Notes: a model not told the origin generated them from the sequence alone. Numbered from the stretch's first letter, positions 8,481 through 57,294 are shown. The stretch is 64,000 bases of DNA from Amphiscolops sp. MND2022 (GCA_964187785.1 OZ076409.1:40240001-40304000); one strand, 5' to 3'. Numbers and translations: made by a program.

Positions 8481-9741
8481 TATCAGTTTTAACATCATGA
8501 TCTCCTTTTGACTCTCAGCAATGATTTTGGTGAGATTGGACATTGAGACGTTTTGATCTCGTCGAGATTTTCAAAATGTAGTCTAGGGGATTTACTAGAA
8601 GCCGCTACGAGGTTCTCTGTCGGATTATTCTCAGCTAATCTAGAATACAAAACAACAGAAATTTAAGGAGTAGCACCATAGTAAATACGGTTTGTTGAAA
8701 TTGTATTACCCATGTATGAATTGAGCTTGCAAGTTTAATTCAGCAACAAGTATTCGTCTTCTCGACGAGAATATAAAATGTTTCCAACACTTTTAACTAA
8801 AATTGCGACACTTTCAAATGGACATGCTTCTTCACGAACACCATTGGCGTTGACCTTACATTGCATTTCGATTCATCTACTAAAAAAATCGAATAACATG
8901 TTGAAACATTCAATCACGATTCTAAGGAAAGCATGTAGCGTAAGGTCAGCGTGTTTTCATGATTAGTGCTGTCATACATTTTGAAATATTGATTTCGCGT
9001 TATAAAGGACTCCTTTTGGGAACATAAAAAGATCTTCATGCTTTACCTTACAACACAGCTTTTGATTTGACCTATTCAATTAGGATAGTCATTCGAAACC
9101 TCTGAACTTCATCACTTCTTGAGGAAACTTTTTTCCAATATACGTCTAAATCTCCTTTTTCAGAGAGAGAGGGTATTAAAATTGCAACGAGGTTTCTCCA
9201 TGTGTACTAAGTTGAGATATAGTTGACCACCGGTTGACGGAGGGTTTGCAGCGAAAGTATTCAAACTCACTAGTTAGCGACGACACAAAAATAGTTACTA
9301 TTGACATGAGCGCAAATACATCAACCAGGTGGTAATGCTATTGGTCCATTGAGCTTTTATTACAACATATCAACCTCACTGCGCGGTCATACATTAGGTC
9401 GTATAAATTTGCTGAGATTACATACTTGTAACTTTGGTAAGTTTTGACAACCCCTTCGAACTAAAACTGTTATTCTGTTTTGGGTACGTATTTCATTTTG
9501 GGTTGTACGTTATCCGTTGGGATCACGGACTTAAATGTTGTCAGTATTTGATTTCAGAATGAAGAGGAATAGTTTTCTTCTTGGATTCTATGTCTCTGTT
9601 TTGATATTTAGATCGATATGGAAATTGTCCAAGAAGTAAAACCGGAAGCGAAAGATAATTACACGCGAAATGTTAGATCGTTATCAGTTTTAACATCATG
9701 ATCTCCTTTTGAATCTCAGCAATGATTTTGGTGAGATTGGA
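8481..9741 (+). repeat. 60-bp direct repeat pair (8481-8540 and 9682-9741)
   Basis: TATCAGTTTTAACATCATGATCTCC...GTGAGATTGGA present twice with one mismatch. Confidence 0.85.
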
Positions 9742-14335: not shown

Positions 14336-15223
14336 ATGCTCTTGTTGTGGGTAAAAAGCTGCGGCCTCCGGATTGTAGTTCGGAGGGTAACTAGCTAATA
14401 TTCGACTAGTGTCATTTACCTAGTTACCATTTCTGCTCGGGGTAGGAAGGATTGCTGTGGTCGTGCGTAGGTGGATATTTACCAGCGTATTTTCTGTAAT
14501 GGTCGTATCAGTAACTTCGGGTGAGTCGTTTGTCTCTTCAAATAGAATTTTGTGGAGATATAGTATTGTTTGATATGAAATTTCACCAAAATTACAAAAT
14601 ATACCAAATTGATCCAATTTTTGTCGTTATTCATACATTTTAAGTACAGTTTTCGAGAGTTTTTATGAGTAACAGTGTTTAGGACGTTCGAAAGCGAAAG
14701 AACAAGCTATGCTGTACGCCTTTTTGTATAGAACGTTGCAGTGTTCCGTTTCAAAAACAAGTCAGAAGTGCTCCAAAAATTACTCCAACGCCAGAATTAC
14801 TCCAACGTTGGTGACTTTATGTTTGGAAAAGATCCAGATGATACAAATAAGTTCACAGCACGCCCTTGTAGGAGAAATTTGCACGTAACATTTGGTTGTA
14901 AAAATCCTCATGGTTAATAAAATTTCCAAAAAACATAGTGTTACAATCTAACCAAAAAATTCAGAATGTATCGACGCTTTATGCTTCTTTTTATATAGTA
15001 TATAAGGTATACACAGGTATATAAGTGGTATTTAAGGCATGTTTGTGGTATACAATATCTTTAAAACTCACTTCCGTCTAATATCCGGTATCCAGTAGTC
15101 TTTTCTGAAGGTTTCAAAATATATTCTTCCTCAGCCTCAAAGGCTTTAAAGGTGCTTGGTAGCTTATGAAATCATGTAAATATTTCAACTAGAGTAATTA
15201 TTTCACGTAACCCCATACTTTGC

Positions 15224-17166
15224 TGTCGCAGGCTGCCGCCTGTGACGGTACTAAAATCACGACGACAGCAGAAGAGCAGGAAATAGCGACCGGTACCCTA
15301 CCAATCTATTAGAGAGGTAAACATTCAAAACTCAAACTTTTATGTTTATCTGTTAGGTTTATAAGTTGAATTTGTTAATGTTGCTAATTTCTCATTTGAT
15401 ATATACTTTTGCCAGTATTAGTCTGTTGAGGCCAACGATCAAAAGGCTCAGATGATCCGTTGATGTTTGTGAGATTCAGAAGTGCAATACAATAAGGTAA
15501 TTGAAGCAATTAGAAACACGGCTAGATAGCGTAAAGGAAACAAGTTCAAGTGAACGAAACTCCAATTCCGGGGACGTCACTTGAGCTCATCTCGCTAGCC
15601 AATCACATTCATTCATTCCTGCAGTGCTATTGCTGTATTTATTAGTTGGCCGGTTAAGGCCGCATGACGGAACTCCGCTTTCATTACTCGGTGCTTTAGT
15701 CAAACGGCCGGTTCCGGCCGCAAAGCAATAATGGAAGATGTATGTACTTTGTTAATGATAGTATAGTTGTGCTTTTATACTGGTTAAACGCTCATTTTAG
15801 TAATTTGGCGCTTTGTTCTAATATTTGGCCGAAGAAGGCCGTTTGCCTGATCATTATCTCTTGTTGCTAGAACCAACCAGACAGTGGCCGGTTAAGGCTT
15901 CTTTTCAAATAAATTATTCGGATGCTATATCTAACCAATTCGCGTACTCTAAATGTCATGTATGGTTGTGATTGCGATGTAAACACTCATGTAACTCCCT
16001 AAATTATTTAGTGCAATCAATATTAGACTATGTTGTTGCTACAAACGCCGGTCTGAAAGACCTATCTGGTTATGCCCACCAGTTAACATGTACAATCTGT
16101 GGCCATATCAGATAAAGTTTAACATGTGCAATAACATGTAATACTGTTGCTCACTAGCCAATTCTGTCTGCTAACGGGGCACGTGCCGACACGGGATTGT
16201 TAGCATTCCCCGAATATTAGCGGCTTGAGTAATTTAATTGATGATAATTGATGCACTGCGTGCCTTTCAAATGTTTACTACTGTTGTCGAAACAAGAATT
16301 TGAATGGCCGCGTGAATTTCCTGATCACATTTCAGCGGCACTTTGATGTTCATATAGCTGTGTAAATCAGGTGCTTCCGGAATGTAGTCATCACATTTTT
16401 TAAGTGTTTGTACTATGTATGTCACGCCCGAGGCAGTATATATAGGAGCTACTCCCTTGGGTGAACACAATTTTGTTCTGCTCCTTAAAATCAGTTTGTA
16501 AAATAACCTTCTGTTACAAACCTCCAAACAAGATACTATTTCCAGGTGTTAAATAATTTATTATTTGACCAGGTTTGTCTCAATGCCTACAACTAGAAAA
16601 CAAGAAAGCGAGAAAGTCCAGAGGACTTGAAATGTTGTCAGATATCAAGAATTTAGATATTATGTTAGGTGAGAATCACTTTAATGCAAGGGAGAGAGAA
16701 AGTAGTTTAAATAGCAATTTGCCCAGGAGATCTAGAAGCTTTGCGAGCAATGAATCCGAAAATGAAGATGGGGACATAGGTAGAAATCAGAGAAATGTTA
16801 ACTCTAGAACAAATGCCGAATGTGACCGAAATTCAGTTACAGGCAACTCTAGTGCTGAGATAAACAGGTTGTCAAGTGGAATAAATTCTCGTATTTCACG
16901 AAAAATGGACGAAATGATGAATTCTGTGAGTGTCCAGATACAAAGGGCCATAAGTGATGCGATAAGTACCCAGGTGCTTCCACAAATCCAAAATGTTATT
17001 ATGGCCAGATCAGGACACGGGACCAGAAAGGGATGAGACGTTCCGTCTGAGAGACCGGAACTAAATTCCGAAGTTCAGCGAAATCTAAACCCAAAGAACA
17101 ACTTGAGAAATGAACAGAATGAGAACCAGTTAAACAATGATTACCCTGATCTGAATGTTCATGACA
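15224..17166 (+). repeat. E2 5' LTR (1943 bp)
   Basis: Matches 29669-31536. TATATATA at 16437-16444; gag ATG at 16583. Confidence 0.95.
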
Positions 17167-18292
17167 TGGTGACAGGAGACAACGAATCTCCAAATCAGGT
17201 TCCTGAGTTTCTCACAGGACGTATCCCATCAAGAAGTCATCTCAGTCAGTCCTCTGAGGACATCAACCTTGACACGACGATCCCAGCGCATGAGAGAATC
17301 GGTACAGCTGCAGATCCTGATCCCATTACCAGATTGGTCGACGTCTTGACTACAATGCAGAATAGACCAACGGCTCAACAACTCACAATACGCCCAGTCA
17401 ACTCTAAACACTATGACTTTCGATGGCAAGAGTGAGAAATTTGAGCTGTTCGAAGATCTTTTCCACACTATGATCCAGATGCAGCCAGAAATGACCGAGC
17501 AGATGAAAATTAACCATTTTCATTCACTATTGAGGAAATATGCTCTCCAGACGTTCAGAAACATCAATTCGACAAATCGCCAAACCCTCGAAGACGTACT
17601 AGTCTTTTCCCGACGAAATACGTCAAACCTGAATCACAGGCAACCGCCAAACATAAATGGCACTGTCTGGTCTTTGATCCCAATACGATGAAACTGCCTG
17701 ATTTCCTTGAAGAATTAAATCAAGGCACAGGGAAGGCGTTCGGAGAACACGCACAGAAAATGATTGACAGACTCCTGTACGCAAAATTGCCACCAAAACT
17801 GAAAAGGTCAGTCAATATGGCCAGACTAGAAAACGGCTCATACGATGAAATAGTTGCTCATTTGGAGAGAGAATTTGAGCTTAACGCCCTCGAGGAGTCA
17901 GACGATCTACCTATGGCAGCAATGACTTCCTCATCTGCTAAGCCCAAAACTCCCCTGTCCACTGGGCAAATGTCGGACATCACTTGCAATTACTGCAAGG
18001 AAAAGGGCCACATGGTCAAGAACTGCGAAAAATTGAAAAAGAAAAAGAGAAAGATGCCCAACAAGGCAAATTGACTCAGAAGAAAACATACCCGGAGTGT
18101 GGCACTTGTGGCAAAAAGAACCACCCGGAGGAAAGATGTTGGCAAGGTGCCGGTGCGCATCTTAAACCCAAACGCACTAGGCCCGAGGACTCAAATGACA
18201 ATAAGCCTAATTCAAAGGCTCAGAAACCTCAGACCAAAACGACATCATCAAGCTCCCAATCCTCATCTTCCAATGATGAGTCAAAAAACTAA
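16583..18292 (+). pseudogene. gag: E2 gag, starting inside the 5' LTR; several frameshifts and stops
   Basis: MPTTRKQ start (a 2-bp deletion relative to the 3' LTR copy). MVTG at the PBS, TFDGKSEKFELFEDLF, CNYCKEKGHMVKNC and CGTCGKKNHPEERC; ends ESKN*. Confidence 0.9.
17167..17178 (+). promoter_or_regulatory. E2 primer binding site TGGTGACAGGAG
   Basis: Follows the 5' LTR only; the 3' LTR is followed by the TSD. Confidence 0.9.
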
Positions 18293-21200
18293 CTTCGCCA
18301 CGACTTCAATACAACGAACTAATATCCGTCCGACAATACATCAGATCGGACCCTCCAACGCAAACCTTTCATCAAAACAATCAGCATTTGATGGGCTATC
18401 CCTATGTTGTCTGGCAGCAACAGATGGAAAAAGCCACCATCATTACCTACAATAACACCCATTTGTTCCAGAACCAATTCCTGTTTGGGATCCTGATTAT
18501 ACAACTACCTTTACAACCCTGTTCAGGCCCATTCCCCTGATCGATGATTACAATCCAACATACATCCTCCCAGACTATGACAGAGTTCCTTATTGGGACA
18601 CCGAGATTTATAACCAGGATCTATTGCAAATCCAGTATTTTCTAGACGACATTGAACACTACAACAAAACAGTCCACGAGAACCCCCCCAATTACCCACA
18701 ACAAGAAAACACGGGCACTAATCAAAAATTAGCAAATGAACGATGGTACAAACCACCCAGTGTTCCCAAACCCCCTGGGGACCGAGAATCCTGAAAATAC
18801 TGCTGAATCCATACCACAATCACTATTAGACGAGAAACAATTCCAGAATGTGCTCATAACCAAAGATGGTGAACCAGGCTGTATACCCCTGTCAACTAAC
18901 ACTAATCTCAAATGCAAGAAACGCATGCTTTATTTCCCAATGGACTTTAGGGAATTGACCATTGATGGACTTAAGACACCGGGGCTCTCTCCAGTGCAAT
19001 TCCTGAAATGGACTTCCGGAAAATCCGCCTTCTATCTCCACAATCTGTCATCCGGGAAGGTCCGCCTCCGAACTTCCAAATCATGGTCACTAATGGGCAA
19101 CTGGAAACTCCCAAGAGTAGCATAGAGCTCAAATTCGAAGTTTGTGACATTGAGTTCAATGAAATCTTCATAGTGATGGAACATTTGACAGGACCGATCA
19201 TTGGACTAATGTTCCTTCAGAGAAATCATACAGTTCTAGACATGAGACAAGGAATCCTGAATTTCCCGTTCTTTTCAATGCAGCTCAAAACAGCTGATCA
19301 CAAATACTCAAACGTGCTAGAACCAATTCTCAACCCTACTGAGATAACCATTCCGCCAAATGATAGAGTCCTAATTAGGACCAATTCCTTACTCTACCCT
19401 GAGAATGCTGTCACGGGGATACTGCAACCGAGCGACCTTCTCCATGATGAAGGCGACATCACATTTTGCCCAGCTTTGGTCACTCTGAATGACGGCAATA
19501 TATTGATACCAGTCAATAACTTCACAGACCACCCTTACAAACTCAAAAAGAGACTTCATATTGCCAATTTCTTTGTCATGACGACAGAACAAATGAAGTA
19601 CGTCAAACCGGTCGATCCGGCATCAACCTGGTACCTCTTGCAAAATGACCAAGAGCAGGCAGCCCATTATGTCAGCAGCCTCATCAAAACGAATAGAAAT
19701 CCTCAAAATTCCAAAAAATACTGGTTCCCAACTCCAGAAAACCCTGGAAACCCCGAGGAACACACGCCCGTCCAGAAAAGAATTCTACGTGAACTACAGG
19801 CCTTACAGGACCTGGAGACACTCGACCCCACCAAAGATGAAGAATATCGTGCAAAGATCCTAGAAAACTTTGAATGAAAAGATTCCACTCTCACTCCTGA
19901 AGAAAAGGAAAAAATTGAGGAATTGCTAGTGGAATTCCATGATATATTTGCACGACACAGATTTGACATAGGCATGAACGAGGAATTCAAGGTGAAATTG
20001 ACACCTAAGGACGATTCCCCAGCCTCTAGCCAGAGCCTCCCAGCTCTACTACCCTGAAGGAGGACATTCTAGTCGAATTAGCCATGTTACACAAATATGG
20101 CATAATCACCACTCTTCCGTTCTCGAAATATGCGAGTCCAATATTCGCACAAATGAAACCCAATGGAAAACTCAGACTCTTGGTTGACTTGAGGAAAATC
20201 AACAACCTCATATCCGATGATTACATAAACAATAATCACCCCGTCAGTACTTTAGTCGACGCCGCCCAACACTTAGCGGGCAAAAAACTGTTCTGTAAAT
20301 TAGACTGCTCACAAGCATACCACTGCCTGTCGATGGCTGACCAACGATCGATTGAAATGTTGGCCTTTAACTTCGCCAGTCGCACATTTGCATACAGACG
20401 TTTGGCACAAGGCCTTAGCAGAGCTCTGTCCGCGTTTTCGAGCTTTATGAGAGAATACCTCGACGAAGTCATTAAAGCGGATCAATGCGTCCTGTATGTG
20501 GACGATATCGGCATCGCAGCCAACGATGCTGACCACCTCATAGCTAACCTGAGAGCAACGTTCAAATGCATTCAGGAAGCTGGCCTTAAGTTGACAATGC
20601 ACAAATATCACTTTGGTGCAAAAGAAATTGATTTTCTCGGACGAACTATTACTCCACAAGGCGTCAAACCCCAGAAACAGAACGTACAGAACTTCCTGGA
20701 AAAGACCAAATTCCTGAAGTCGAAAAAGGCTTTACAACGCTATTTGAGATTCCCAAACTACTACAAGAATTATGTCCCAAGACTTTCAAAACGCCTTGCT
20801 CCATTCTACAAGATGCTGAAAAGTGACGAAATTTTCCTTGTATCGAAGGATTTAGTCCAACAATTTGAAGAAATCAATAAAGCACTAGACAAATGCTGCG
20901 ATTTGGCACTACAACAACCTATCCCGAACGAGCAAATTGCACTAATGACTGATGCAAGTTTTGGTGCAGCTGGATACGCGGTCCTAATTGAAGACGACCC
21001 AAGCCAGAAATTTACGTCAACCAGAAAGTCCTATGCCCCTGTTGCATACGGATCAAAAACCTTCACCCCAGCACAGATCAAAATGTCAATTTATGCCAAA
21101 GAATTCCTTGCAATTTATTTTGCATTCAAAGAATTTGGACATTTCTTCTGGGTGCGCCGAAACCGGTCTTTATCCTAACTGACAACAAAGCTGTAACACG

Positions 21201-23485
21201 ATTTTGCCAAACGAAAATACAACCCCCAGCCCTGTGGAACGCGTGTGACTACGTGATTCAGTTCAATTTTGTCATAGGGCACATCCCAGGAGCACAAATA
21301 ACAGCTACCGACTATTTGTCCCGTTTGGAAGCAGACCCGAAGGACAAACTAGTCATGAAGATCCGTGAAGACGCACAAACGCTACCAATCGAAATAAACG
21401 TCTAATCAGCAGGGGTGTCACAGGAAGAACAAATCTTCTACACTAATGACGACGATGAGACAGAGGAACAATACTGGACAAGGAAAGAAGCAATCAGGAA
21501 AAATCCAACTATTGATGAGCCCACGGTTACAATACAAACTCTGTCAACAAATCTGGTCATCAACAAACAAGCATCACCCTGACATACAAGTCCGATTAAG
21601 GAAGACGAATCAAATCATTATCGAGCAATCCAAAGATGCTGTACTACATTAATTGAAAGCAAAACTCCTTCACGAAGAATACTCAGAGAACCTACTGCAC
21701 CAGGATGCCCGATACAGACATTATGCAAACAATCTGGAACGAATTGTACTTAAGGACGAAATCCTGACAAGGCAATACTTTGATGAAACAGGGAACGTTA
21801 AAGACCACCAAATTTTGCTTCCGCAGCACTTACTCCAGGAATTGCTTCAGTCTCTTCATGGGACAGCGCACAAACACCCTGGTATCTCAAAAATGTTGCA
21901 GGAAATTCGACAGAGGTATTACTACCCTAGCGTGGCTAAACACGTCAGAAAATGGGTAGAAGGGTTTGAAGAATGTGCAAGGGACAAACGAGTCCCCAAT
22001 GCAACAATTACGTTTGAACTACTCAACTTGCCCGAATGGGACTTTGGACCTGAAGACGCCATGCAAATCGATTTATTGCCGAATCTTCCCCCAAGTGGAG
22101 GCTACGAAAACGTCCTAACAGCAATTGATGTGTTCTTCAGATATTTGTTCGTCTATCCCCTTACGGACGCGTCGGCGATCAATGTAGCAAAAGCGCTCAT
22201 TGACATTATGACCAAACACGCATATTTACCGACAACACTTATTACTGACAAAGGTTCTGCATTTACTTCTACAATTACTACGGAAATTACGCAAATTTTT
22301 TGGGCATAACACTCAAAGGTGCAGCAACAAAACATCCGCAAGTAATTGGGAAATTAGAGCGGACCCATGCCTCACTAAAAACAAACCTCAAAATGGCTTG
22401 TGGAGAATATCGCCGACAATGGCACAACTACTTGCCATTAGCAGTACTAAATCACAACACTAGTTACCATGCCAGCATCGGTTGTGAGCCGGCGAGAGTA
22501 TTTCAGGAGGAATTCCATATAATATCTTGGATCACAAGCTTAGAAAAAATCCAAATGAGCAGGTCAGCCCAACAACCGAATTTGCTGAAGAAATACAAAA
22601 CCGGACAAAAATCTTGATTGACAAAACAAAGCAAAGTATTATGCAGTCATATATCAAGTACAAAGAATATTATGATCGCGAGGCAAAAGCCGCTCCACTG
22701 AAGGAGAATGATTATTGCTTTGTATTACAGCCGAAAGCGGATCATCAAGGATCAAAAATCCCATTCCATGATTATAGATGGGTCGGACCAACTATAGTCC
22801 AAAAAATTCTACCTAACAAAAATTACATTGTACGACGAATCAATACAAACAAGACTCAAATATTGCATCGGATTCGAACCAACCGCTTGAGGACAATTTC
22901 CGAGAACAGCGGTTACAGCCTGATGAAGAGATTGTCATTCCGCAAGATGACTTATATATCATAACGTGGGAAACAGACTTTGGCGAGCAGCTAATTACAC
23001 GAGGACACGATCCTATTCCGACTAGCCTACCGAATGGCGAACAGCCGAATGCGGCAGAACTGATTCATAGTGACTTAGACGAGAATGAAGCGGATTACAT
23101 AATCACGACAGACGAAACAAATTACGCTGACCACGCGGCGCACAGCCGAAATGAAAGATTAAATGATGACGTCACCAAAAGAAATGCAGCTAGTGAAGCG
23201 ACTAGAAATGAAGAATCTGATTGGCCGAATCCGGCCGTTTTCCCAAAAAGTCAAGAAAAATCTTTGCCGAATTCGGATGAAGGACAAAAAAACTATGAAA
23301 GTTTTTCACAAAGAAACCCGATGAAAGAAAATGATGCACAAAATTCTCCAAAAAGGGGGGATGATATTATCGTGCCCGAAATATCGGAAGACGATACCAG
23401 AAATGAACGTCTGAGCCCTAGAGGAGGGAAATATAATCTCAGACCTAACCCCAACCCAAACTACATAGAAGATTTTAGATACTAA
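18283..23485 (+). pseudogene. pol: E2 pol: PR, dUTPase-like spacer, RT, RNase H, integrase
   Basis: IIGLMFL protease end; LYVDDIGI; LMTDAS; H..HKHPG integrase zinc region; MQIDL, ITDKGSAF and LERTH as the DDE triad; WVGP (GPY/F). Gypsy domain order. Many stops and frameshifts. Confidence 0.95.
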
Positions 23486-23719
23486 AGAATTGAATTCTTC
23501 CCGAAAATGGGAGTTCTTTTCTTTTATCTCTTTCATCTTTTCAGCCCCTCAAGAATTTTTTGCAAAAAATAATAGGGCTTTCCAAAGGATCCCTTGTGAA
23601 AAAGAATAAATATGGGATCAAGGAATCAAAAGAAACGTAATGAGAATACAAATCCGGCAACAAAACAGAAAATAAACGAAGTTTACAGTTTGTAAGTACA
23701 TAAAGACATATGTACAAAA

Positions 23720-26700
23720 TCAGGACTTAGTGGAGGAATCTTTACTGGGACTTCCAGCAACAGAAGAAGTGGACGACCTCGAACCGCTCCTACCCCTCTT
23801 TCGCTTTTTGCTGCTAGGGAACCTCACAGCAGATTGGTCACCCACAGTACTACTTCCTTCCAGATCACCTTGCGCTGAGGCCCTTTTCGGAGCTGAATCG
23901 GCTTTACGATGGGTGGCTAAGAAGGACTTATATATTTTTGACCGACCAAAAATGTCTGTGTAAGTCCAAGGGTCGTACTCTGGGGAGAAGGCAGCGCGTC
24001 CAAAAGACGCAGCGAGGGCAGAAAATTTGGCAAGGCTGGAATCTTCACTGCTTCGAATGACGGAACCAGCAACATTGGCCATGTAACTCTGACAAGGTAA
24101 AACCAGGTCAGTGAATCGGTTTTGCCCTCCAGCAGCGGTGACATCTCCAAAGACGACAACGGTTGTACACAAACAGCTCAAATTAAAGAGGTGCAAAAGG
24201 TGAGAACGCTCGTGGAGAAACTCGAGCCCCATCAGGAACTCGATCAGATCGGCTGCCACGCTAGTGATGTCAAAGCTGGAACCGTAGGCAGTCCGGAGGT
24301 GGTCTAGTAGCTGAATGTATTGGTCTCGACACAGAGACCTGTTCGAATCATCGACCCAGGATCGAAGCGCAAAGGTATTGTAAAGCACGTCAAAGTGCCG
24401 CAAAGCCACATCTATCGGCCTCTTTAGCATAATGAAGGGATCAAAGGCTGCTAGTCCCTTCACGAGATTGGTGCTGAGCCCAGTCCTCTGGAGAATTCCA
24501 TTAATCAGGAACTGAATGTATTGCTGGCTGTCCTTGACGAAGTCAGCTTTCACTGTCTCAGCAGTAGCTAGGATGGCGGCCCGTTCAGTCTTCTGGCTGA
24601 AATGGAAACCCCCGGCCCTTGCCTTGCACGCAGTTGACACCTTGTTGGTCATCTTGAGCCGGATCAGGTACTCATCCCCAGGTAGGAAAGTGCCCTCGCT
24701 TGTCTGGAAACGGAGGAGGAGAAACCAGGCATTAGCTACAGGGGCAGTGTCTGGGGTTTAGATGCGAGAGCAGAGCAGGCTGAGGAAATGGCTGACCTCC
24801 CTGCATAGGTAGAAGGACGAATCACGACAAAACTGCAGGCTCACTGAGAAACTGGTCACGACTGAAAACAAAACTAATGTCCAGTTCAGGACAACTTACC
24901 CTCACCGGTTTTATAACAAACTATACTTACAATCACTGACAATTTTACTGAAGAACTCCAGCTTGACGATGCAGAATTCGTCCCATATCAGTGACCATTC
25001 AAAGCTTTGCACCTGGAACAAACCAACATCAATCCAATAATTGAAAATGGACCTTAGATCAGCCAAGTGAAGAAGGACGACTTGAATTCCTATGGGTTAA
25101 AGTGGAAAATGAGGAAAATCTAATCCTCCCTCTAGATCCTGAACCTTCTTGCAGAGGTGCATGGGTAGTGAGGTACCAAACCACAGACTTCCATTCGACG
25201 ATGAGTTCCCGACAGAGGATGGGTAGAGTTGTCACATCGAGTTTACAACTGGTTATAGCCTGGAAATAGCAAACGGATCCAATTATACACGTTGGACAAA
25301 TGAAACATTCCCTACCTAGGCCCTATCCCTCCAGTGGAAATTCTGTGAAGAAACTACTTACTTTAGTGAGTTCTGGACTACGAATTACCCAGTCTTCCAT
25401 GAGGGATCCGCCCAAAGAGACCATCAGAGCTTGAAGGACGGAGAAGAAAGCGATCTTTCTGAAGACACTGTTGCTGGTCTTGCGCATGAGTCGTGACAGG
25501 GAGAAGTGCTCGAAACGTAAGCAACTCTGAACCCCCTGGTTGTAATACTCTGACTCGTCAATGGCTCTGGGTAGGTCTGGGTGACATCCGGAACAGGCAA
25601 CTATTCCGGGTTTGGTGGACACGGCAGAGAGGATCCGGGAAAGGGACCCCAGTTCCCCGGTCACGTCAGTAGTGGTTCGAGAGCTTCGGCAAATGAACAC
25701 TCTACAAAGCTCGGAGCCTTTCCAGAACTTGACAGACATATGCTTGTAGACTCCAACTGTCTCAAACTCAAGGGAAAAGCACTGTTGGGAGTTGACTTGC
25801 TCTGCTATGTCGTCAAGGCAGCAGATGAAGAAGTGCTGGAAGATTGCCTAGGGACAAAACCCTTTTTAAAACCTTAGCTGGAACCGGCAATAAAGAACTA
25901 AAACAAACTGTACTAACCGACAATCTCTCTTCCCCCCAATTAAAGTCATTGAAGGTGGCTTGGTGATTGGTGAACGACCCCACCCGGGACCACAGATTGC
26001 GCAAGACCATCATATCATTCCTTGAGTCTTAATGAAGTCTCCGACCAGACAGAGTTGGGTCCTGATGCGGGCTTCTGGAGTGACTAGGGCAGTTGTGAAC
26101 CCTTTGACGAAATCCTCGTAGAAAGGGAATCGTTTTCCTATGTCCACAAGTTCAACGTTCTTGAATTTGGGCAATTCCTTAGCCAGTTCAACTTGGTCAG
26201 AAGCTTCCCATTGCCGCCACGGACCCGGTGCTGCGTCTTCCCAGTAATTGGGCCGGTACTTCGCAAGTGTTCGTAGCGCCAGCGCTGGTCTCGTCGAAAA
26301 TGACGCTCTGTCCGGTGGTGTCAGAGTATCTCGTAGGGGCCTTTGGACTTGATGGAAAATTTTTTCTTACAGATATGACACCAAACCATATGAGGGTTAT
26401 GGAGCGGGTCAGCTGGTCCAGAAATGAAAGATCTCGTCCATCCGATTTTAGAGAAGAATTCCTTTCGCATGGGGACACCTCGTTTAGAAAGATTCTTGTT
26501 GCCTTTCTTCTTCCTGGACTTGGACGAGCTGGCAGTGGTTGCACACAGGGCTTGATCTCTGACCTCAAGCAGTGTGGCATCTTGACTACTGTACTCTGGC
26601 GCGTCAGTCTCTGTGTCTTCTTTGACGTCCTGGCTCGACGATTGAGGCACTGGGGCATCTTGGACATTAGTAGTCATCTTGGAAGATTGGGTTATTAAAT

Positions 26701-27911
26701 CCATTTCGGTGGCACTATCAGTCTCCCCATAATACGAGGAATCACCGGTTTCTCCAGAACTGGATACCTCCGTGTTTTCGCCCCTTAGCGTAGCTTCTCC
26801 TTCAGTGTCACTTCAACTGGAATCTTCTGCACTACCGGGACCTGGGGTTTGTGCGCGCCTGCCTGAGTAGAAGTGCCCAGTTCTGGATGGAGCAACAGTC
26901 GGTTTACCTCGGACTGCATCAATGACCATGCGTTCCATAGTCGAAAAGGACCTTCCGAGGGTCTCATCAGTGAGGACTCCAAGAAGGTGGAACACCTGCG
27001 GCTCAGTGAAGGTGACGGTGGTTTGTCCTACTGGAAATCGAGTAGAGGGAGGTTCGTCGAAATACTCCTTGAGGATCGCTCGACTTCTTCCGGAAAGGTG
27101 CGGAGGCTCTTTCTGGATTGTGCCTTGTCCGGGCGTCTGCCCACTGGTGCCGGGAACCAGAAGCTTAGGTTCGGTCTCGTCTCCCCATTCAGTTTCAGAG
27201 GCGTGAGAAAAGGGATGACAACCATCTAGGGCTACTGGAACGATCACGCTGGACTGATCAGTTGCACCTTCGTCTCCACTGGGGTCAGTCAGATATCGGA
27301 CCTTGAATTCTCCGCCAGGGAGAGGGGGAGCGTCGCCAACAGAGGATGCTACTTCAGTGTCCTGTTGTGCGGGTGAAATGCCACCCGTGTTGTTGCCTGG
27401 AAGGTCAACAGTCCACAAGTTCAGCCAATTGAGAATCCGACGTCTCTACCACTCGGAGGGCAGACTCTAGAGCAGACTGATCAATATTTGGGGTTTCTCC
27501 TTCATTGACTGAGAGTGGCGTGCTTGCTCTTCTGGTCCCTGCAGTAGGCGAGGCAGGAGGATCTCCTTGAGTACTTGGGACAATATCCTGAGCTGGCTCT
27601 ATTTGCCCTGCTCCTCCCTGTGGTTGGTCGGGCACTTGTGCTCCTTCTAGCTTGCGTACCATGTTTTCCGCGTATGCAGTTACATCTGGGTCACTATCAG
27701 CACTGTGTGTAGAGGTGACGTCATCTGCTCGACTGCGTGGCGTTTCTTGGGATGGAGTCGGGTATTGGACTTGCCTACCCTGCTCAGTTGGGGGATTGAC
27801 TGTTGGAACATTGATAGGAGGGTCGGCTGGTGTGCTGGCAACTTCGGTTGACTGATTCTCTAAACGAAAAGAGATAAAGTTTGACGGTATGCTTCCTCGA
27901 AAAGAATCCAT
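23720..27911 (-). pseudogene. E2 antisense multi-exon accessory gene: disordered N-terminus, C2H2/BED-like finger, hAT-transposase-like body
   Basis: VWCHICKKKFSIKSKGPYEIL(R)HHRTERH finger. GT-AG introns at 25848-25917, 25260-25361 and 24862-24930; removing them gives near-gapless alignment to the E3 antisense protein. True start uncertain. Confidence 0.8.
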
Positions 27912-28968
27912 ATTACCGCGTTAGAAATCTTCCGGAAGTGTTTCAGATTTGAACAAAATGTGTTGTCACGAACCTATTAGTGGAAACAGGAAGCGCTGTA
28001 TGAAAGAAGTCTAGCCTTGATCAAGCTAAACTAGTTCAATATGTGAAAACTGAACCAACTTGTAATTGAAGACATGTTTCTCCAGTACTGTTAACCCAAC
28101 TCGAAGAGTCTCGTACTAGCTGGCCGGAATCGTGGAGTTGTGCCAATCTCGTTAGAAGAAGAGGGGAACCAGGGATTCTCCGAAACGAGGAGTTGTTAAG
28201 CGCAAGAGAGATGGTGACGTAAATAGACTGGTGCCAATTGAAAGGATATGGATGGGAAGACAAAAAGAAAATAACCAGAATCGAATCGGAATTAAAAGTA
28301 GATAAGAGAATTGGAATGTTGGAGTTCGTGGCTGAAGAGATTACCAGACTAATACTATATAATTACTTACATATTTAAAATTGTGCATGGAGTCTGCCAG
28401 CGAAATGTACAGAAGATCTTCGTTGTTTACAGTTTACTTAGTTAGTGGCCGATTATGGCCGTTTGCCTTACTTTGATTTGCCATTTTGTTCCGTTGCCCT
28501 AGTTACCCTTAGTTAAAAAATTTGTCATTTTGAATCATTTTAGTTAATTTTTTCGCCATTCTATTTATTCATTTTTCATTCTATCAATGGGAGTGTCTGA
28601 TTGGCTGAAGCCATTTTGAGAAAGTTTTGCGACGCATGCCGTTAATTACCTTCGAGCTGACGTTAATTACCCACTTGAAACGGGTGAAGTTAATTTTTAC
28701 AACTCAAGCGTCGTTCACACCTCTCATAGTGATGGTATTGATGAGCGGTAAACACTGAATTATCAAAGGATGCCGACTAATTATGAAATTCCGTTCAGGA
28801 ATGTTTATGCCGGATTAGGACGATTTACCGAAGACTCAACCGCCAAAACGAATTGCCGGGGAAAAGCCCGACTTGGCCAAATTCTCGAGTTGGTGAATTC
28901 ATTCCACCTTGAAATCTTGATCAAGCCAGTCGACTTTCCTACTTAACGAAATTGCTAAAAAACTGATA

Positions 28969-29757
28969 ATGCAAAGATACAACTTGACTAAAAAGCTCTT
29001 CGACTTTGAAGAAGAAGAATCAGAAAGCTCAACTAACTCAGTGATCTACATATCTAGCAATAGTGAAAATGAAGCTTCAAGCTCCTGGGATTCAGACTGG
29101 TCCACAGATACGGAGGCCATAATAGACAGGATCGAGCGAGAGGTTAAGGCAGTCACAACCCCTATTGCGGGGCGCGGGATGACGACGGAAGACTCAAACG
29201 ACGAAATGGTAGCGGGGCCCAGCAATGCTCAGCCTGTTCCGCCCTCTACCCCCATGCTGGGATTCGAATACTTCAACAGAGAGATGTGCCTAGCGCCGTC
29301 TAAGAAACAGAAGAAATCGAGAGTCGAGCTTTGTACTACAGTGCTACCTGTCTTGGAATCTCCACTGTCTCCTCCTGATCACGAGAGAAGACCCAGTATT
29401 GACACCCCTCTTGTACAGCCGGCCTCAGGGACCTTCTACGCTTCATACCATGTGCAGAATATCAAGCCATACCAAAATATCAGTGAGAGTCTACACACAG
29501 GCTGTATGGTATGTGGTAAATCAAGGGATCAGATAAAAGAAGAAAAGATCAACTGGTATATGGAGAGATCGACGCCCAAAAGTGAACTCGCCTACATCAC
29601 CGCATTACGACGAGAAGCCTACTCTATTGGTTTGAACGCAGGTAGTTTACTTTTCCTAACATCCGCAGTGTCGCAGGCTGCCGCCTGTGACGGTACTAAA
29701 ATCACGACGACATCAGAAGGGCAGGAACTAGCGACCGGTACCCTACCAATCTATTAG
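28969..29757 (+). CDS. E2 ORF-X, 262 aa, acidic N-terminus plus CxxC domain, ends 89 nt inside the 3' LTR
   Basis: Uninterrupted ORF with SSWDSDW and GCMVCGK. Homologous segment in E4. The C-terminal SQAAACDG is also encoded at the start of E5. Confidence 0.8.
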   Translation: MQRYNLTKKLFDFEEEESESSTNSVIYISSNSENEASSSWDSDWSTDTEAIIDRIEREVKAVTTPIAGRGMTTEDSNDEMVAGPSNAQPVPPSTPMLGFEYFNREMCLAPSKKQKKSRVELCTTVLPVLESPLSPPDHERRPSIDTPLVQPASGTFYASYHVQNIKPYQNISESLHTGCMVCGKSRDQIKEEKINWYMERSTPKSELAYITALRREAYSIGLNAGSLLFLTSAVSQAAACDGTKITTTSEGQELATGTLPIY

Positions 29758-31536
29758 AGAGGTAAACATTCAAACCTCAAACTTTTATCTTATTCTGTTA
29801 GGTTTATGAGTTGAATTTGTTAATGTTGCTAAATTTTCATTTAATATATACTTTTGCCAGTATTAGTCTGATAAGGCCAACAATCAAAAGGCTCAGATGA
29901 TCTGAATAAGGCCATTTGCCTGATCATTATCCCTTGTTGCTAGAGCCAACCGGACAGTGGCCGGTTAAGGCTTCTTTTCAAATCAAAAGCTCAGAACGAG
30001 TTCAAGTGAACGAAACTCCAATTCCGGGACGTCACTTGAGCTCATCTCGCTAGCCAATCACATTCATTCATTCCTGCAGTACTATTGCTGTTTTTATTAA
30101 TTGGCCGGTTAAGGCTGCATGACGGAACTCCGCTTTCATTACTCGGTGCTTTGGTCAAACGGCCGGTTCCGGCCGCAAAGCAATAATGGAAGATGCATAG
30201 CTTAATATCATTGTACTTTGTTAATGATAGTATAGTTGTGCTTTTCTGGTTAAACGCTCATTTTAGTAATTTGGCGCTTTGTTCTAATATTTGGCCGATT
30301 AAGGCCATTTCGTACTCTAAATGTCATGTATGGTTGTGATTGCGATGTAAACACTCATGTAACTCCCTAAATTAATTAGTGCAATCAATATTAGACTATG
30401 TTGTTGCTACAAACACCGGTCTGAAAGACCTATCCGGTTATGCCCACCAGTTAACATGTACAATCTGTGGCCATATCAGATAAAGATTAACATGTGCAAT
30501 AACATGTAATACTGTTGCTTACTAGCCAATTCTGTCTGCTAACGGGGCACGTGCCGACACGGGATTGTTAGCATTCCCCGAATATTAGCGGCTTGAGTAA
30601 TTTATTTGATGATAATTGATGCACTGCGTGCCTTTCAAATGTTTACTAGTGTCGTCGAAACAAGAATTTGAATGGCCGCGTGATTTTCCTGATCACATTT
30701 CAGCGGCACTTTGATGCTCATATAGCTGTGTAAATCAGGTGCTTCCGGAATGTAGTCATTACACTTTTTAAGTATTTGTACTATGTATGTCACGCCCGAG
30801 GCAGTATATATAAGAGCTACTCCCTTGGGTAGACACAATTTTGTTCTGCTCCTTAAAATCAGTATGTAAATTAACCTTCTGTTACAAACCTCCAAACAAG
30901 ATACTATTTCCTGGTGTTAAATAATTAATTATCTGACCAGGTTTGTTTCAATGCCTACAACTAGAAAACAGAAGAAAGCGAGAAAGTCAAAAGGACTTGA
31001 AATGTTGTCAGATATCAAGAATTTAGATATTATGTTAGGTGAGAATCACTTTAATGCAAGGGAGAGAGAAAGTAGTTTAAATAGCAATTTGCCCAGGAGA
31101 TCTAGAAGCTTTGCGAGCAATGAATCCGAAAATGAAGATGGAGACATAGGTAGAAATCAGAGAAATGTTAACTCTAGAACAAATTCCGAATGTGACCGAA
31201 ATTCAGTTACAGGCAACTCTAGTGCTGAGATAAACAGGTTGTCAAGTGAATTAAATTCTCGTATTTCACGAGAAATGGACGAGATGATGAATTCTGTGAC
31301 TGTCCAGATACAAAGGGCCATAAGTGATGCGATAAGTACTCAGGTGCTTCCTTAAATCCAAAATGATATTATGGCCGGATCAGGACACGGGACCAGAAAG
31401 GGATGGGACGTTCCGTCTGAGAGGCCGGAACTAAATTCCGAAGTTCAGTGAAATCTAAACGCAAAGAACAACTTGAGAAATGAACAGGATGAGAACCAGT
31501 TAAACAATGATTACCCTGATCTGAATGTTCGTGACA
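29669..31536 (+). repeat. E2 3' LTR (1868 bp) with second copy of gag N-terminus (30951-31536)
   Basis: Direct repeat of 15224-17166 with substitutions and one internal block rearrangement. Confidence 0.95.
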
Positions 31537-31785
31537 TTTGCCGTAGCTTCTCACGCAGTTGCGGTGAATGTGGCGTTTTACAAAACACACATGGAGCTAA
31601 AATAATACGGAATTCGGAAGAAAGAAATGTAGTTGTAAAAAAGAAAGAAAGGAAGTAAGAAAAGTTGATTTGATTGGAATCATAACATAAATACCGAAAC
31701 ACATTTAAAATTAAACAGAAGAAACCAATCTGGACAGGAAAAGATCCTATTGCCTCATCAAGATCCTGCCTTGAACAACCAATTT

Positions 31786-31873
31786 TTTTGCATCAATGAT
31801 TGTCTATAAAACTCCCAAAATCATGCTAATTAGCATGATTTTGGGAGTTTTATAAACAATCATTGATGCAAAA
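31786..31873. repeat. 88-bp spacer-less palindrome centred on CTAATTAG
   Basis: 44-bp arms with one mismatch (31804/31855). Confidence 0.95.
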
Positions 31874-33220
31874 TATTTCCCTGATGCAGTGCTATTTCTT
31901 CAGGTATTTATTAGGATTTCTATCCAATTTGTCGGGTTTTCAGAGCACATCAAGGAATTTAAAGAACAAAGTCCACGCAAAATTTTGCAGGTTTCCGCGG
32001 GCAAAACCTCAATTTGTATACGCACAGACAGATGATGTAAACAAATAGTCAACGAGTGCCTTGTGGCAAAAAAATTCGTAATACTGAAATGTGATGTGTT
32101 CTGTATCCAATATAAGGGTTCTGTGTTTCGTTTTCCTCAAAACAACCAACTCCGAAAGCATTTTTGGACTATGATTTTGCATAATTTTAATTTGTAGATC
32201 TTCACTAGTTTTTAATTTTTAATATTGATTGCAATTCAGTTTTTTAACTCTTTTATTAGGCTGAAGAGATGATGGCCTTTTTGAGAGAAGTGAGATTAAA
32301 AAATACGAAAGATTGCGTCCTTTTCAGGATTTTTGTCAAGGCTTAGTGGATCTTTTTCTAAGTTTCTAGAAAGTGCAGGAAAGTTTTCCAAGATTTTCCA
32401 AGATGCAGGGAAAGTTTTTAAAAATTTTCCATGCAGGGTCTCTGAGTTTTCAATGTTTTATCAAAAATTAGCCTGCATTTCATTCATGTGTTTACAAATT
32501 TTCACGGCATTCTCAACTAGGGTAGCGAGGCGATATTTCTTTCCAGCTTCGCTCGCGAGAGATTACGTATTCATCTCAGAAAATACAGAATTTACTGCAG
32601 AGTTGTTTTATTCAGTATTCATTCAAAGACATGTTTCTGTTCGAAGGCTTTTTATGCATTGAAATCTGTTGAATTTTGTGAGCTTTCTCATAGCTAATAT
32701 TTGCTTGACACTTCGTCTACCGAAGGTTAGCTGCATCATCGGAATCATCGTCTATTGATCTTACCCGCTGATCAAACACTGCCTCAATTTGACCAACTTC
32801 ATAAAGATGGACAATCCTTTGCTTTTGGACAATTTTTTCATCTTTTAAATGTGGAAGAGAGAAAAAGGTTGTATTGTCTCCAGGTTGTTTTTAATTCAGA
32901 TCATTCAAGCGTTTCGTTTATAGACCCTTCTGAGTGCTCGTGTTGATAGTCAAAACCCATCTTCCAAATAGATATATTCTAAACATCAAACTCATTTCGC
33001 AAATTGCGTTTCAGAAACGCATATTGTTTCTTTCTTTTTGCAACCTCAAGGAAACATATTGGAGTCGCAACATCACTGAAAAACCTGCTTTTATTTCGCA
33101 TTCTCATGGTAATTAGATTGTTCAATCGATTGCTTTAATTTAGTGTCTCAATGTTTTTTTTGAATAGATGAATACCTCCAAAGGTTACAACGAATACATT
33201 TTACAAACTCATCAGTCACC

Positions 33221-33859: not shown

Positions 33860-34143
33860 GGCTCCGTTTTGACAGCTGATCTTTTGCTCATTTTTTCCAT
33901 TTTTTCCATTGATCTTCACCGGCACTCCCCATCTGCACCATGGGCACAAACAAGATGAAACAAGACGGATCGTCTAAAGTCGGCACTATATCTAAGGCTC
34001 AAAAGTGCAGTGCCTTAGATATAGTGCCGACTTTAGACGATCCCGTCTTGTTTCAATTTGTTTGTGCCCATGGTGCAGATGGGGAGTGTCGGTGAAGATC
34101 AATGGAAAAAAATGAGCAAAAGATCAGGTGTCAAAACGCAGCC
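33860..34143. repeat. Long inverted repeat (~135-bp arms, 13-nt spacer 33999-34011)
   Basis: 33860-33998 versus 34012-34143. The inner ~45 bp of each arm is the terminus of the dispersed repeat also seen at ~39915-39963. Confidence 0.93.
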
Positions 34144-53450: not shown

Positions 53451-56400
53451 TCAACAAGACTTCTCTTGGCGAGATCCTTTCTTCGACACCGCTCTCTTCT
53501 TTTGCACCGACGAACTCGTAGAGGCCTGCACTGGTTCGGACGCCTCAACCACAGAAACAGTCTCAGCAGCAGACGTAGTACCAGACGGCACACCACCGGA
53601 TGATCGCCCACTAGCCAACCGAGCTCTCCATCCCTCAACCTGACCAGTGTAGTAGGCGGTGTAACAGCGAAACAAACTCTCAAAAACCTCTGTCCAAGCA
53701 TGACGACTGATTTCTACCAACGGATCGAAAGAGGTGCGCGCCAAGAACTGATGCCCCACAGGCAAATTCACCTTTAACTCCTCCAAACACTCCACGGTCA
53801 GTAAATCATTCGAGACAAACTTGGGATGGAGAACAAACGAATGCACTGCACTGATCCCTGAACAGATAACAGCTGTAGGAAGACCAACTCCACTACTTCA
53901 AATATTCACCGGAGGCATGGCATTTGGCCCAGAACACACCATCACTCGCAACAGACGAAACACTTGTTTGACGTAGCCCCGGCACTGATAAACATCACTA
54001 GCTTCCAAAAATCCGAATACATCACAAATTTGTTCAGGATCAGAAGACTGTTGACGCAGGTCTACAACCAGAGACTTGAACTCATTTACAGAGGCCTCCC
54101 GGTCAACTCCACTCAGAAAGCTAGCACCATGTAAACAGCTCACCAGATTTTGAAACAAATCTACCACATACTCAGCATCTCCACACAGCAGCATGTTTAC
54201 ACTCAAACAGCTGAGCGAACGGGCCACACGGGAATTACAATAAGCTGAAGATCCAAGCCGTTTCAACAACTCAAGCAAGGAGCCCTGACACTCACGCTGG
54301 AAGGTGCGGCGAGGAGCGTCATCAAAACCGCGCAACGCCGTCATGATGCTGGGCTCGGACTGCAAACACTCCCCAGCGGTAACATTCGCCCAATTGGTCA
54401 GAGGCTGATCAATGTACTCAAACCAATTATCCACGGAAGGCAACTGACTAACTTTCTTCACCTTGCCCAAAAGACTCCAGTAAAAAAAGCGAAAGTCAGT
54501 AAAATTGCGACACGCGTAATCCCGAACCTTCGGATCCTGCTGCCTCCTGAAGTTCGAATTGTAGCACAGCAACACAACGTGCAAAAAGGCAAAGCGCGGC
54601 AAGACCAGACGATCAGCACACAGAAGAGAATATAGATCCACAACATTCGCTGACTTCTTCATCAATAGCACATTGTTCAATAAGCACAGCTTCACGTCAG
54701 CCCAATTATCCAGAAGTTCCTGCAGAATCCCACACAAAGACGCAAAGGGCACGACTCCGGTTTCCAAACATAGACGCAATTGAGGCAGATTTAATAACCA
54801 CGCCTGATGACGCACCCGCTTGAGACGCTGAACCAATTACTCCAGAGCTGAGAACGGATCCACAGACCCCACACACACAATACTGGACTCATTGATTAGA
54901 CGCCGCAACATATCGGGATCGAAAGCCATAGCAACAACAGGCACAGGACGACCAACGGTCTGACACCAGTCGATATACCCATTAAATAGAACAGGTGGGC
55001 AGTTCAAAATTGAAGCAGGTCCACGAATGGTCGACACAAGGGACAGAACACGTGCGAGACACCGCATCTCAGCCTCACAGGATGTTTCACCATGAGGTTC
55101 TTCAAAGAGGTGTACCTCGCGGAGACAGTCATCGGGGCAGCATCGGACGATACACTTCACACCGGAGTATGAAGACTGCAGCGCCAAGCTAAACGGGCCG
55201 TCCCCAAGCCATGACTTCACACGACGAAGAACACGAGGATAGAGAGTCTGCACAAGGACCACTAATGTCTCCGTCTTACTCCAAGTAACTGAAGCGTATG
55301 CACTCTCGACTGGCAAAGTAGTCCGGAACTGGTTCCACAGCCGACGCAAGAATAACTGGGACCCTCCACTCTTCAACAGTTCCAACAAACATCCCACAAG
55401 AGTCGTTGGGGGCACATTGGATGGGACGCCAACCAGTGCGTCCACTTCGTCTTCCAGAAACGTATTCATCCGCCCCAATACTACAGGCGGAGTTTCCTTA
55501 ATCTCGGCACGTTGTTCAGCACTCAGGTCAGCAACTCGGATGGGATCAAACTTCTCCGTATAAATCACATCCTCGTGATCGTAACGGTACCGACGATCTT
55601 TGAGGTAGTGACCCTTGCACTTGAAATGCCGCCAGATGCCTCGTGCAACCCGAGACAGAAAGGAAACATCTTTCTTGCAAATTGAACAGTTGAACCCATT
55701 CGGACTCTTGTCATCCCGTCGACTGACAAACAACCGGGGAATCGCATGGTCACTCATGGCTTTTGTCAACACATGACGCTCCGTCTGCCGTTTTGCCCGT
55801 CCTTCATCCCGAGCCAACAGGCTTGCCTTCTTCGTCTCTAGAGGATCCAGCACTCGTCCAGGGCTATCAGCGTCAATGCCTTTCCCTTTCAGGAGCCGAG
55901 ACAACTCCTCAAATTCTAAACATAACAACAAGTAGTCAAACAAATGACAGCATACAACAACACTTCATACAAACATCCAAGAGATAGAGACAACAAAAAC
56001 AACCCAAAAGAAACCACCGAAGAAGTCAAGAAAGCCAAACAACAGAACAACAACAATACACTTACGCTTAGCCAGGCTTTTGGTTTCTTTAAGAGACTCA
56101 GTCCGCTCTGCTCGGGCAGCACTTCGGGCCTGTAACACACACTGCGCCGCGGACATCATCATTGGTGAACCAGGAGGAACTGCATCCAGACCAGCTGACA
56201 ACAAACAAGCAAGTTTCACAACACCATATTTGACGCTAAACCGCACCATGAGCAAAAGTACACAACACGAAGAGGGCATAAAGAGAGGAATGGAAATGAA
56301 AATTCAACGTACCATTTTCCCAGTCATTATACACAACTGAGGCCTCCACCCCAACAGCGACTCGTCCGTGCTGAGTCCTGCCACGCTTGGACGACACACC

Positions 56401-57294
56401 GGGTAGCTCCGAGACAGCATCACTGACAGGGGCAGGAGTATCACCCGCCACCTCACACACAAATACATCACTGTCCTCGGAAGACTCAATTCCCGGCCCA
56501 GGCACTGCTCCAGCAACTATAATACAACCAAAGTATGAACAACAGGAAATGCAGAACAAGTGTCCCTACAAGCAATACACGAACCCATTTCATTGTACTT
56601 GACACCCCTAGAAAGAGAAAGAGAAAGAATACCTACTTTCAAGAGTCTGAGAAGCAGAAATCATGGGGGGCACATGGTCATCTCCCGAACTGTCATGAAC
56701 AGAGGGCGGCCTGGTAATCGAACCAGAAATGACATCCGCCAACCGAACCTGTTTCGCAGACTGCACACTGGTAGTTGACAACATTCGACTGGCCCTTGTC
56801 TTCTTCTTCCCTTGGGACCTCGTACTACGGATCGGGGCATAATCCTCATCAGATCCATCATCGGTAGCTACAGAAAGTAGATGAATAGAACGCGTTCATA
56901 AACCTAGAAAAGGCTGGCCACCTATTAATTTCTAGAAAAGATTACCTTTCTTCCGTGCCAACTGATCAATGTCATGCCGATCATCACTTGTGGCAGAATG
57001 GAAAGACCCAGTTGCAATAACACTCTCATGCTCTCCACTACTGTCATCACTGGAATTTGCTCTGTCACCAAAGCCTGGCACATGTCCCTCTGCTTGCTCA
57101 ACAGACCCACCAGCTTCCTCCTGAACGCCGCCTCCACTCGCCTCTTCATTTTCATCATCACCGCCACATCCACTAGTTTTTTCCTCTCCACGGAAAACCG
57201 ACTCAACCACAGACTCAACTTCTGCTCCACTCTCAACCAACTCTGCTTCTCGACTGCGGTGCAACAATGCACTATCTTCTTCAGTAGAACACAT
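53451..57294 (-). pseudogene. E3 antisense five-exon accessory gene, ~1125 codons, two premature stops; hAT-transposase-like with C2H2/BED-like finger
   Basis: Exons 57294-56946, 56867-56637, 56516-56313, 56194-56066 and 55915-53451. Four phase-1 GT-AG introns keep one frame. FNCSICKKDVSFLSRVARGIWRHFKCKGH finger. Stops at 54837-54839 and 53898-53900. Confidence 0.8.

Follow-up and report, generated by a model that had tools for sequence, protein, structure and literature searches.

LTR retrotransposons are expected to be without ordinary multi-intron genes. The described systems closest to the locus reported here are the plant Ty3/Gypsy elements of the Tat/Retand lineage. Nearly every member of this lineage has antisense extra ORFs (TRP28/PF04195, PMD; gene23 of Grande, RIRE2) between pol and the 3' LTR, for which DNA binding has been predicted and a regulatory role proposed (PMC11963269, PMC7264820, PMC4408406, PMC6317226). 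One of the two papers on Retand and its antisense ORFs (PMC11963269 or PMC7264820) urges a search for antisense and spliced transcripts. Spliced antisense genes are found in deltaretroviruses, namely, hbz of HTLV-1, APH-2/3/4, and AS1/AS2 of BLV, which code for nuclear regulators of the provirus (PMC10186651). Penelope-like elements keep introns and an antisense template has been proposed as the reason (PMC3846280), while the only intron of Ogre is in sense orientation and separates gag-PR from pol (PMC4408406). Among animal elements, LTR retrotransposons of bdelloid rotifers have captured an ORF3 of the env, DEDDy, GDSL, CC, and TM types (PMC5408684). Annotation of transposable elements seeks extra ORFs of at least 250 codons without splicing (PMC6317226) and, as splicing is ignored, genes of the type described below would be split up or missed.

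The window, by which we mean the whole stretch of 64,000 nucleotides of Amphiscolops sp. MND2022 DNA that was analysed (GCA_964187785.1, OZ076409.1:40240001-40304000), contains a complete Ty3/Gypsy LTR retrotransposon, E2, at 15224-31536, flanked by a 5-bp TSD. Our overall reading, to which we give a probability of about 0.6, is that E2 belongs to a Ty3/Gypsy family with a five-exon antisense gene between pol and the 3' LTR, that this gene is under purifying selection and likely spliced, and that its predicted product is a catalytically dead hAT derivative, likely a DNA-binding regulator of its own element. The features of E2 are as follows.

15219..15223, + strand: 5-bp TSD TTTGC, second copy at 31537-31541; 5-bp TSDs likewise in the 7 other copies printed
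15224..17166, + strand: 5' LTR (TG...CA), followed by a PBS-like TGGTGACAGG; 93% identity to the 3' LTR
16569..23485, + strand: gag-pol (zinc knuckle, RT, RNase H, integrase), fragmented in the window copy; the gag frame starts within the LTR
23720..24861, - strand: exon 5 to the stop TGA, with a basic tail at its end; one in-frame stop in the window copy
24862..24930, - strand: intron 4 (I4), phase 1, 69 nt, GTAAGT..TTTCAG; GT/AG conserved in the alignment
24931..25012, - strand: exon 4, 82 nt (82 nt in 33 of 34 copies)
25013..25124, - strand: intron 3 (I3), phase 0, 112 nt; donor broken in the window copy
25125..25259, - strand: exon 3, 45 codons (135 nt in 32 of 34 copies)
25260..25361, - strand: intron 2 (I2), phase 0, 102 nt, GTAAGT..TTCCAG; common to E2 and family L147 only
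25362..25847, - strand: exon 2, 162 codons, predicted RNase H-like core, the fold being taken from the E3-family model
25848..25917, - strand: intron 1 (I1), phase 0, 70 nt, GTTAGT..CCCTAG; same site in other families
25918..27911, - strand: coding part of exon 1, ATG at 27911; frameshifts and stops in the window copy
28325..28401, - strand: putative promoter of the antisense gene, internal to the element (CTGGCAGAC motif and AT-rich stretch), conserved in E2 copies
28921..29757, + strand: additional ORF in sense orientation (278 aa), which extends into the 3' LTR and is divergent from the antisense gene
29669..31536, + strand: 3' LTR, forming with the 5' LTR a pair with TG..CA ends

The domain order RT-RNase H-integrase in gag-pol is that of Ty3/Gypsy elements. 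The window copy is decayed in both pol and the antisense gene, and in the young copies L067 and L061 pol is unbroken with 1737-1746 aa. The 5' LTR is followed by a PBS-like TGGTG to which a matching tRNA was not assigned. None of the 8 copies printed has a purine-rich tract just before the 3' LTR (29640-29668 in the window), the sequence there being pyrimidine-rich, which leaves plus-strand priming unexplained. No env match was found in the E2-type element.

As in the plant Tat/Retand elements, the antisense coding region of E2 lies between pol and the 3' LTR, and it does so in 44 of 44 loci. Unlike those elements, no TRP28 (PF04195) or PMD (PF10536) match was obtained here in Pfam at E of 1 or below, and a hAT-length transposase fold was found instead; four to five conserved spliceosomal introns are present, whereas the word intron is absent from the main text of the two Retand papers (PMC11963269, PMC7264820). 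The likeness to hbz is that an antisense gene, here one that is probably spliced, resides in a reverse-transcribed genome. Deltaretroviral antisense genes differ in that they start in the 3' LTR and code for small proteins such as the 31 kDa HBZ (PMC10186651), whereas the gene of E2 would code for ~1290 aa, is interrupted by four introns within its coding part, likely has a promoter inside the element, and probably comes from a transposase, and the element has no env match. Introns persist in E2 as they do in Penelope-like elements, which are however of the non-LTR class, and, unlike the intron of Ogre, those of E2 are antisense and several. Like the bdelloid elements, E2 is an animal element of the Ty3/Gypsy type with an extra captured gene, but neither intron nor transposase occurs in the text of PMC5408684. 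The gene of E2 would work like the plant antisense ORFs and hbz but belongs to neither family. Antisense extra genes and spliced antisense genes are thus already known, and the part that appears to be new, in that our literature search (subscription literature, supplements, and Repbase-type entries lay outside its scope) returned no such LTR clade, is a multi-intron hAT-derived antisense gene across a whole clade.

The origin of the antisense protein was approached with a structure model of the protein of the E3 family (25 sequences, pLDDT 71), E3 being a second element of the window whose antisense gene is homologous to that of E2. The top Foldseek match of this model was the Hermes hAT transposase (E 4.3e-4, prob 1.0), and in VIA Hermes was again first (Z 12.2, rmsd 4.8, 401 aligned residues; the next match 6.9) and was the only chain among 48161 with a Z of at least 8. 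The match spans 215-716 of the model, which is the whole hAT length, and the model has the RNase H-like core, the helical insertion, and the N-terminal zinc finger of the hAT fold, to which E2 is tied via profile matches. In the viral model library a hAT-family protein was the only match at E<0.001, and the Atlas leads, which are leads only, were also hAT-like (0.87-0.88). Sequence comparisons gave no such signal: Pfam scans at E of 1 or below returned nothing relevant for the antisense protein, the PDB sequence search returned a single irrelevant match (E 0.087), hhalign against 9 genomic hAT transposases was not significant (prob 0.8% and 0.1%), a cluster look-up returned no names, and PF14291 had no match in the genome and none in the controls either. 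The own model of E2 exon 5 was poor (pLDDT 52) and had no structural match. Based on the one predicted model of the E3 family, the antisense protein is very probably of hAT origin.

This genome has 150 scored matches to true hAT transposases. The acidic residues and the CxxH typical of such enzymes are present in the 9 genomic hAT transposases. By motif and secondary-structure comparison with these enzymes, the DDE triad, CxxH, and a conserved glutamate are absent in the LTR-borne proteins, the matching strands of which have variable residues or glycine instead of acidic residues. The alignment of the E3 family has an invariant tryptophan at a hAT-like position. From positions read in this way, the antisense protein is probably catalytically dead. 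Its predicted fold, N-terminal CCHH finger, and conserved tryptophan are those of hAT transposases such as Hermes and of domesticated proteins of the ZBED/FAM200 type, from which it differs in having no conserved DDE or CxxH, no TIRs, and no 8-bp TSD and in moving with an LTR element instead of staying at one locus of the host. The predicted layout of the E2 protein after splicing (~1290 aa) is an acidic arm, a CCHH zinc finger, a hAT body, and a basic tail; the product of exon 1 has an acidic low-complexity region, a basic stretch, and the CCHH zinc finger (~26380-26300).

We propose that a hAT transposase gene entered an ancestor of the clade in a single capture, in reversed orientation, between pol and the 3' LTR, and that the terminal repeats and catalytic residues of the captured gene were then lost. 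In this orientation its introns would go unrecognised when the genomic RNA is spliced. A separate antisense mRNA, started at an internal promoter near 28400, would be spliced and code for ~1290 aa. The E3 lineage would have dropped the 3' introns, probably via recombination with a cDNA of the spliced mRNA. The step of which we are least sure is the action of the protein, which in the nucleus would bind to the DNA or chromatin of its own element and would promote or tune transcription as an anti-silencing or accessory factor. That the antisense protein regulates its own element we hold to be an even bet. We put at a little under even the wider proposal that a recently active LTR clade domesticated a hAT transposase as an intron-rich accessory gene, spliceable thanks to its antisense orientation, the product of which is a sequence-specific factor used to escape silencing or to steer the cycle, and that, while resident in the retroelement, the gene undergoes intron loss and perhaps intron gain. 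If so, the core enzyme of one class of transposons appears to have passed into the service of another, where selection has maintained it in many families, and this gives a structural handle on what the antisense accessory genes of retrotransposons do.

The promoter of this scheme is a candidate only in E2- and E3-type families. An identical 11-nt motif lies upstream of both antisense genes (E2, 28391-28401; E3, 57404-57414, - strand) in spacers that are otherwise unalignable, and it is a candidate promoter or binding site. The motif is common to these two types and was not found at the same place in other families, and a k-mer test of the spacers gave nothing common to at least five families. 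The candidate promoter lies ~1.3 kb inside the LTR boundary.

The best surviving alternative to regulation of transcription is that the spliced hAT-derived protein works at the cDNA or integration step, by binding LTR ends, by nuclear entry, or by tethering to chosen chromatin; nuclear entry has been discussed for the plant antisense ORFs (PMC7264820). The transposase-like fold together with the zinc finger, the basic tail, and the co-inheritance with pol would fit such a role. It is nevertheless unlikely, and the long acidic arm of the protein, more typical of transcription or chromatin factors, speaks against it. Dead transposase derivatives can serve as repressors, and the protein could be a dominant-negative repressor of, or a decoy for, host hAT transposons or silencing factors, with an indirect benefit to the element or to the host. 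The richness of the genome in true hAT transposases speaks for this but, since alignment with 9 hAT proteins of the genome revealed no sequence similarity between them and the antisense protein, mixed oligomers are unlikely, and we regard this role as improbable. Somewhat more improbable still is that the protein, its active site having changed, still works as a nuclease or transposase and gives the element a second activity at the DNA level: the whole hAT-length fold (215-716 of the model) is kept under strong selection and the tryptophan is invariant, but there is no conserved acidic triad or CxxH, TIRs are absent in that only chance-level pairs of 11-19 nt were found around the gene in 4 copies, and insertions have LTR ends with 5-bp TSDs, no 8-bp TSD being present around the gene.

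The place of the gene was examined in copies of E2 and in other families. Of 20 E2 relatives fetched, 19 have an LTR pair, with an LTR identity of 94-99.9%, and the 20th is truncated yet still adjoins integrase. In the 24 loci of other families, which were chosen from hit lists, a direct-repeat pair and a pol on the opposite strand were present in every case. Thus in 44 of 44 loci examined the antisense gene is opposite to gag-pol and beside pol, in a sample of top matches that is biased to intact LTR-bound copies, and the gene is clade-wide and not confined to E2. The pol proteins of the families with the antisense gene are ~45-57% identical, and the RT tree, which is unrooted and was made by a quick method, has the same main groups as the tree of the antisense protein. 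These findings weigh against a recent intron-bearing hAT DNA transposon that is nested in the LTR element as a passenger. Such a passenger would account for the hAT fold and, since DNA transposons commonly have introns, for the introns, but it would not be expected at the same place and on the same strand in all 44 loci, across families with so diverged a pol, with no inverted repeats, with purifying selection, and with matching trees. We consider a nested hAT transposon largely refuted on these grounds, and very unlikely.

Introns in sense orientation are lost on retrotransposition, whereas introns spliced only from the opposite-strand transcript are kept. The RNA that is reverse-transcribed is that of the gag-pol strand, on which the introns of the antisense gene read CT..AC and are unspliced, and each new copy would therefore retain them. 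In 9 of the 20 fetched E2 copies the LTRs are at least 99% identical and all four introns are kept there; since these copies have near-identical LTRs, retrotransposition preserves the introns. It had been suggested in the preliminary description that antisense orientation lets the element carry an ordinary spliced gene. The part on orientation stands, with the gene opposite to gag-pol in 44 of 44 loci and the introns present in young copies, but the gene is not an ordinary one if, as predicted, it is derived from a hAT transposase.

The exons and introns were defined with copies from the genome of the window. A DNA search of this 1.07-Gb genome gave 930 candidates, 40 of which were scored (76-100% identity), and 30 copies from the search with 4 more off the same list made up an alignment of 34. 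The three introns of the preliminary description (25917-25848, 25361-25260, and 24930-24862) were recovered with the same coordinates and ends and with the peptides quoted for their junctions. A fourth acceptor, suspected there at 25013, proved to be real and its donor was located, giving I3 at 25124-25013. The window copy, one of 2 such copies, reads AT at this donor, which was revealed by the alignment. Intact splice sites were found at I1 in GT 34/34 and AG 34/34, at I2 in GT 32/34 (1 AT, 1 gap) and AG 33/34, at I3 in GT 31/34 (AT in 2, TT in 1) and AG 33/34, and at I4 in GT 34/34 and AG 32/34, and 25 of the 34 copies have all eight dinucleotides intact. A comparison of GT/AG with intron interiors, which had been proposed as a check, favoured the introns: mean column conservation is 0.985 at the 16 splice columns versus 0.83 at 268 intron-interior columns, a value matched in 0 of 100000 random draws, although the copies are related and this is no true p-value. 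The introns have the sequence features of the U2 type, with GT..AG ends, a GTRAG-like donor, a T-rich 3' end, and splice sites conserved above the interior. Their lengths differ among copies by non-multiples of three, whereas exons 2, 3, and 4 hold 486, 135, and 82 nt in 26, 32, and 33 of the 34 copies, and gap patterns shared among copies number 16 within the introns (353 nt) versus 1 within exons 2-5 (~1800 nt). In six young copies exon 1 is a single open frame of 683-686 aa and the frames of exons 2 and 5 are likewise unbroken; the E2 exon lengths total ~1290 aa, exon 5 of the window copy being 21 nt short of the commonest length.

Conservation of codon positions 1, 2, and 3 in the spliced phase is 0.95, 0.97, and 0.81 in the 34-copy alignment. 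For exons 2-5 in the spliced frame dN/dS is 0.02-0.13 in 21 of 24 exon-by-pair values from six copy pairs, the other 3 being saturated, against 0.85-7.9 in the other two antisense frames; for exon 1 it is 0.11-0.18. It is likewise low (0.04-0.28) in the mirror frame on the gag-pol strand, as is expected from shared third positions, and no mirror frame of at least 250 aa was found in young copies. In 8 copies, all 32 intron-by-copy cases have an in-frame stop or a frame shift. Since every intron blocks unspliced reading, the downstream exons that are under selection need splicing. Removal of the introns restores the frame that is under selection, in register with the intron-less homologue in E3. 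Divergence of intron interiors is 0.49-0.81 versus 0.7-2.3 at synonymous sites, which indicates that the interiors are not fully neutral. Selection of this kind on the coding frame indicates that the antisense product benefits the transposing lineages. Judged from sequence, the antisense gene is almost certainly a real spliced gene. That the introns, which are known here from DNA alone, are unspliced and consist of decayed or inserted sequence flanked by GT and AG by chance has next to no probability in view of the splice-site conservation, the low dN/dS, the blocked frames, the same sites in other families, and the exact register with the intron-less homologue.

The genome was also searched for processed DNA copies. 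The intron-bearing form of the I1 junction motif gave 58 matches (control 0) and the intron-less form gave 0 (reversed control 9); thus there is no intron-less copy of the E2 family at the I1 junction. When 1.84 billion proteins were searched with a profile, 804 matches were obtained, many of which are exon-sized pieces. No spliced full-length protein of the antisense gene was found among 5619 longer candidates and no junction-spanning protein among the fragments retrieved from intron-bearing families. Protein searches of the 1.07-Gb genome gave 7000-8500 first-look candidates each, which are not copy numbers.

The E3 gene has a different intron arrangement.

53451..57294, - strand: E3 antisense gene, homologous to that of E2, ATG at 57294; stops in the window copy
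56945-56868, 56636-56517, 56312-56195, and 56065-55916, - strand: E3's own phase-1 introns, followed by one long exon without I1-I4

The homology of E2 and E3, on which the preliminary description had relied, is borne out in young E2 copies, in which three profile matches (E 4e-10 to 5e-8) are collinear. E3 is intron-less, as stated there, over the aligned part but not over the whole gene, which has the four phase-1 introns upstream. These interrupt the region for the acidic N-terminal part, and the internal exons measure 231, 204, and 129 nt. The E3 N-terminal introns (55916-56945) have no counterpart in the 2-kb exon 1 of E2. Many relatives of the E3 protein have open frames of ~820-880 aa, and E3 relatives with unbroken frames have 837-838 aa. 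The 3' end of E3 has a 3.16-kb tandem duplication (56110-59417 and 59270-62856), as a result of which the 5' part of the antisense gene is present twice, as is a part of the LTR.

When a strict automatic rule was applied to 14 loci, 9 of them had I1 at the same codon and in phase 0, behind the same tryptophan motif, the intron being 68-174 nt long, and by eye L159 also has I1 at the matching site. I3 (phase 0) and I4 (phase 1) are at matching sites in L125, L147, L159, L207, and L211. Intron 4 of L147 (oriented context 8503-9199) is ~700 nt long, apparently by an insertion, with site and phase kept. Two database proteins, the top genome matches of which are at 30-35% with no close one, end at the I1 site, and their intron is placed by the protein end only. 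The introns of the antisense gene of this clade are, on this comparison of sites, old. In a tree built on the zinc-finger region, the 9 rows without introns fall into one clade (100/99), which is nested among rows of the I1 type (99/97 with sisters); the trees were midpoint-rooted, and the RT outgroups are too distant to serve as a root. Since the intron-less clade is nested, loss in the E3 lineage is most economical unless the root is on that branch, and it is likely, as far as the tree goes, that the E3 lineage lost introns of the I1-I4 type. With intron-bearing and intron-less families side by side, intron loss mediated by reverse transcriptase becomes testable, and if our reading is true the clade is a natural test bed for it.

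Several other features were seen. The gag frame starts inside the 5' LTR both in the window (16569-17166) and in young copies L059-L069, and hence every 3' LTR bears a gag N-terminal ORF of ~250 aa. The sense ORF at 28921-29757 is conserved, with ~280 aa, an acidic N-part, and a C-x2-C motif, and it has no Pfam match and no Atlas lead; ORFs of ~190-270 aa are at the matching place in most other families checked. Some pol proteins of the clade (P0224, P0236, and P0260) carry a precomputed dUTPase domain (PF00692). A third element, E1, is at 1-4038 (- strand) of the window; its RT groups with the L125-type intron-bearing family and its antisense gene would fall outside the window. At three places in G000 (C10:2574537-2602675, C12:14845839-14874860, and C149:24162-52913) there are three matches each that are ~13.6-14.5 kb apart, a spacing that suggests tandem arrays of whole elements. 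The window also contains MITE-like small inverted-repeat elements and perfect or near-perfect hairpins at 41866-43069, 33885-34126, 7311-7404, and 31781-31878.
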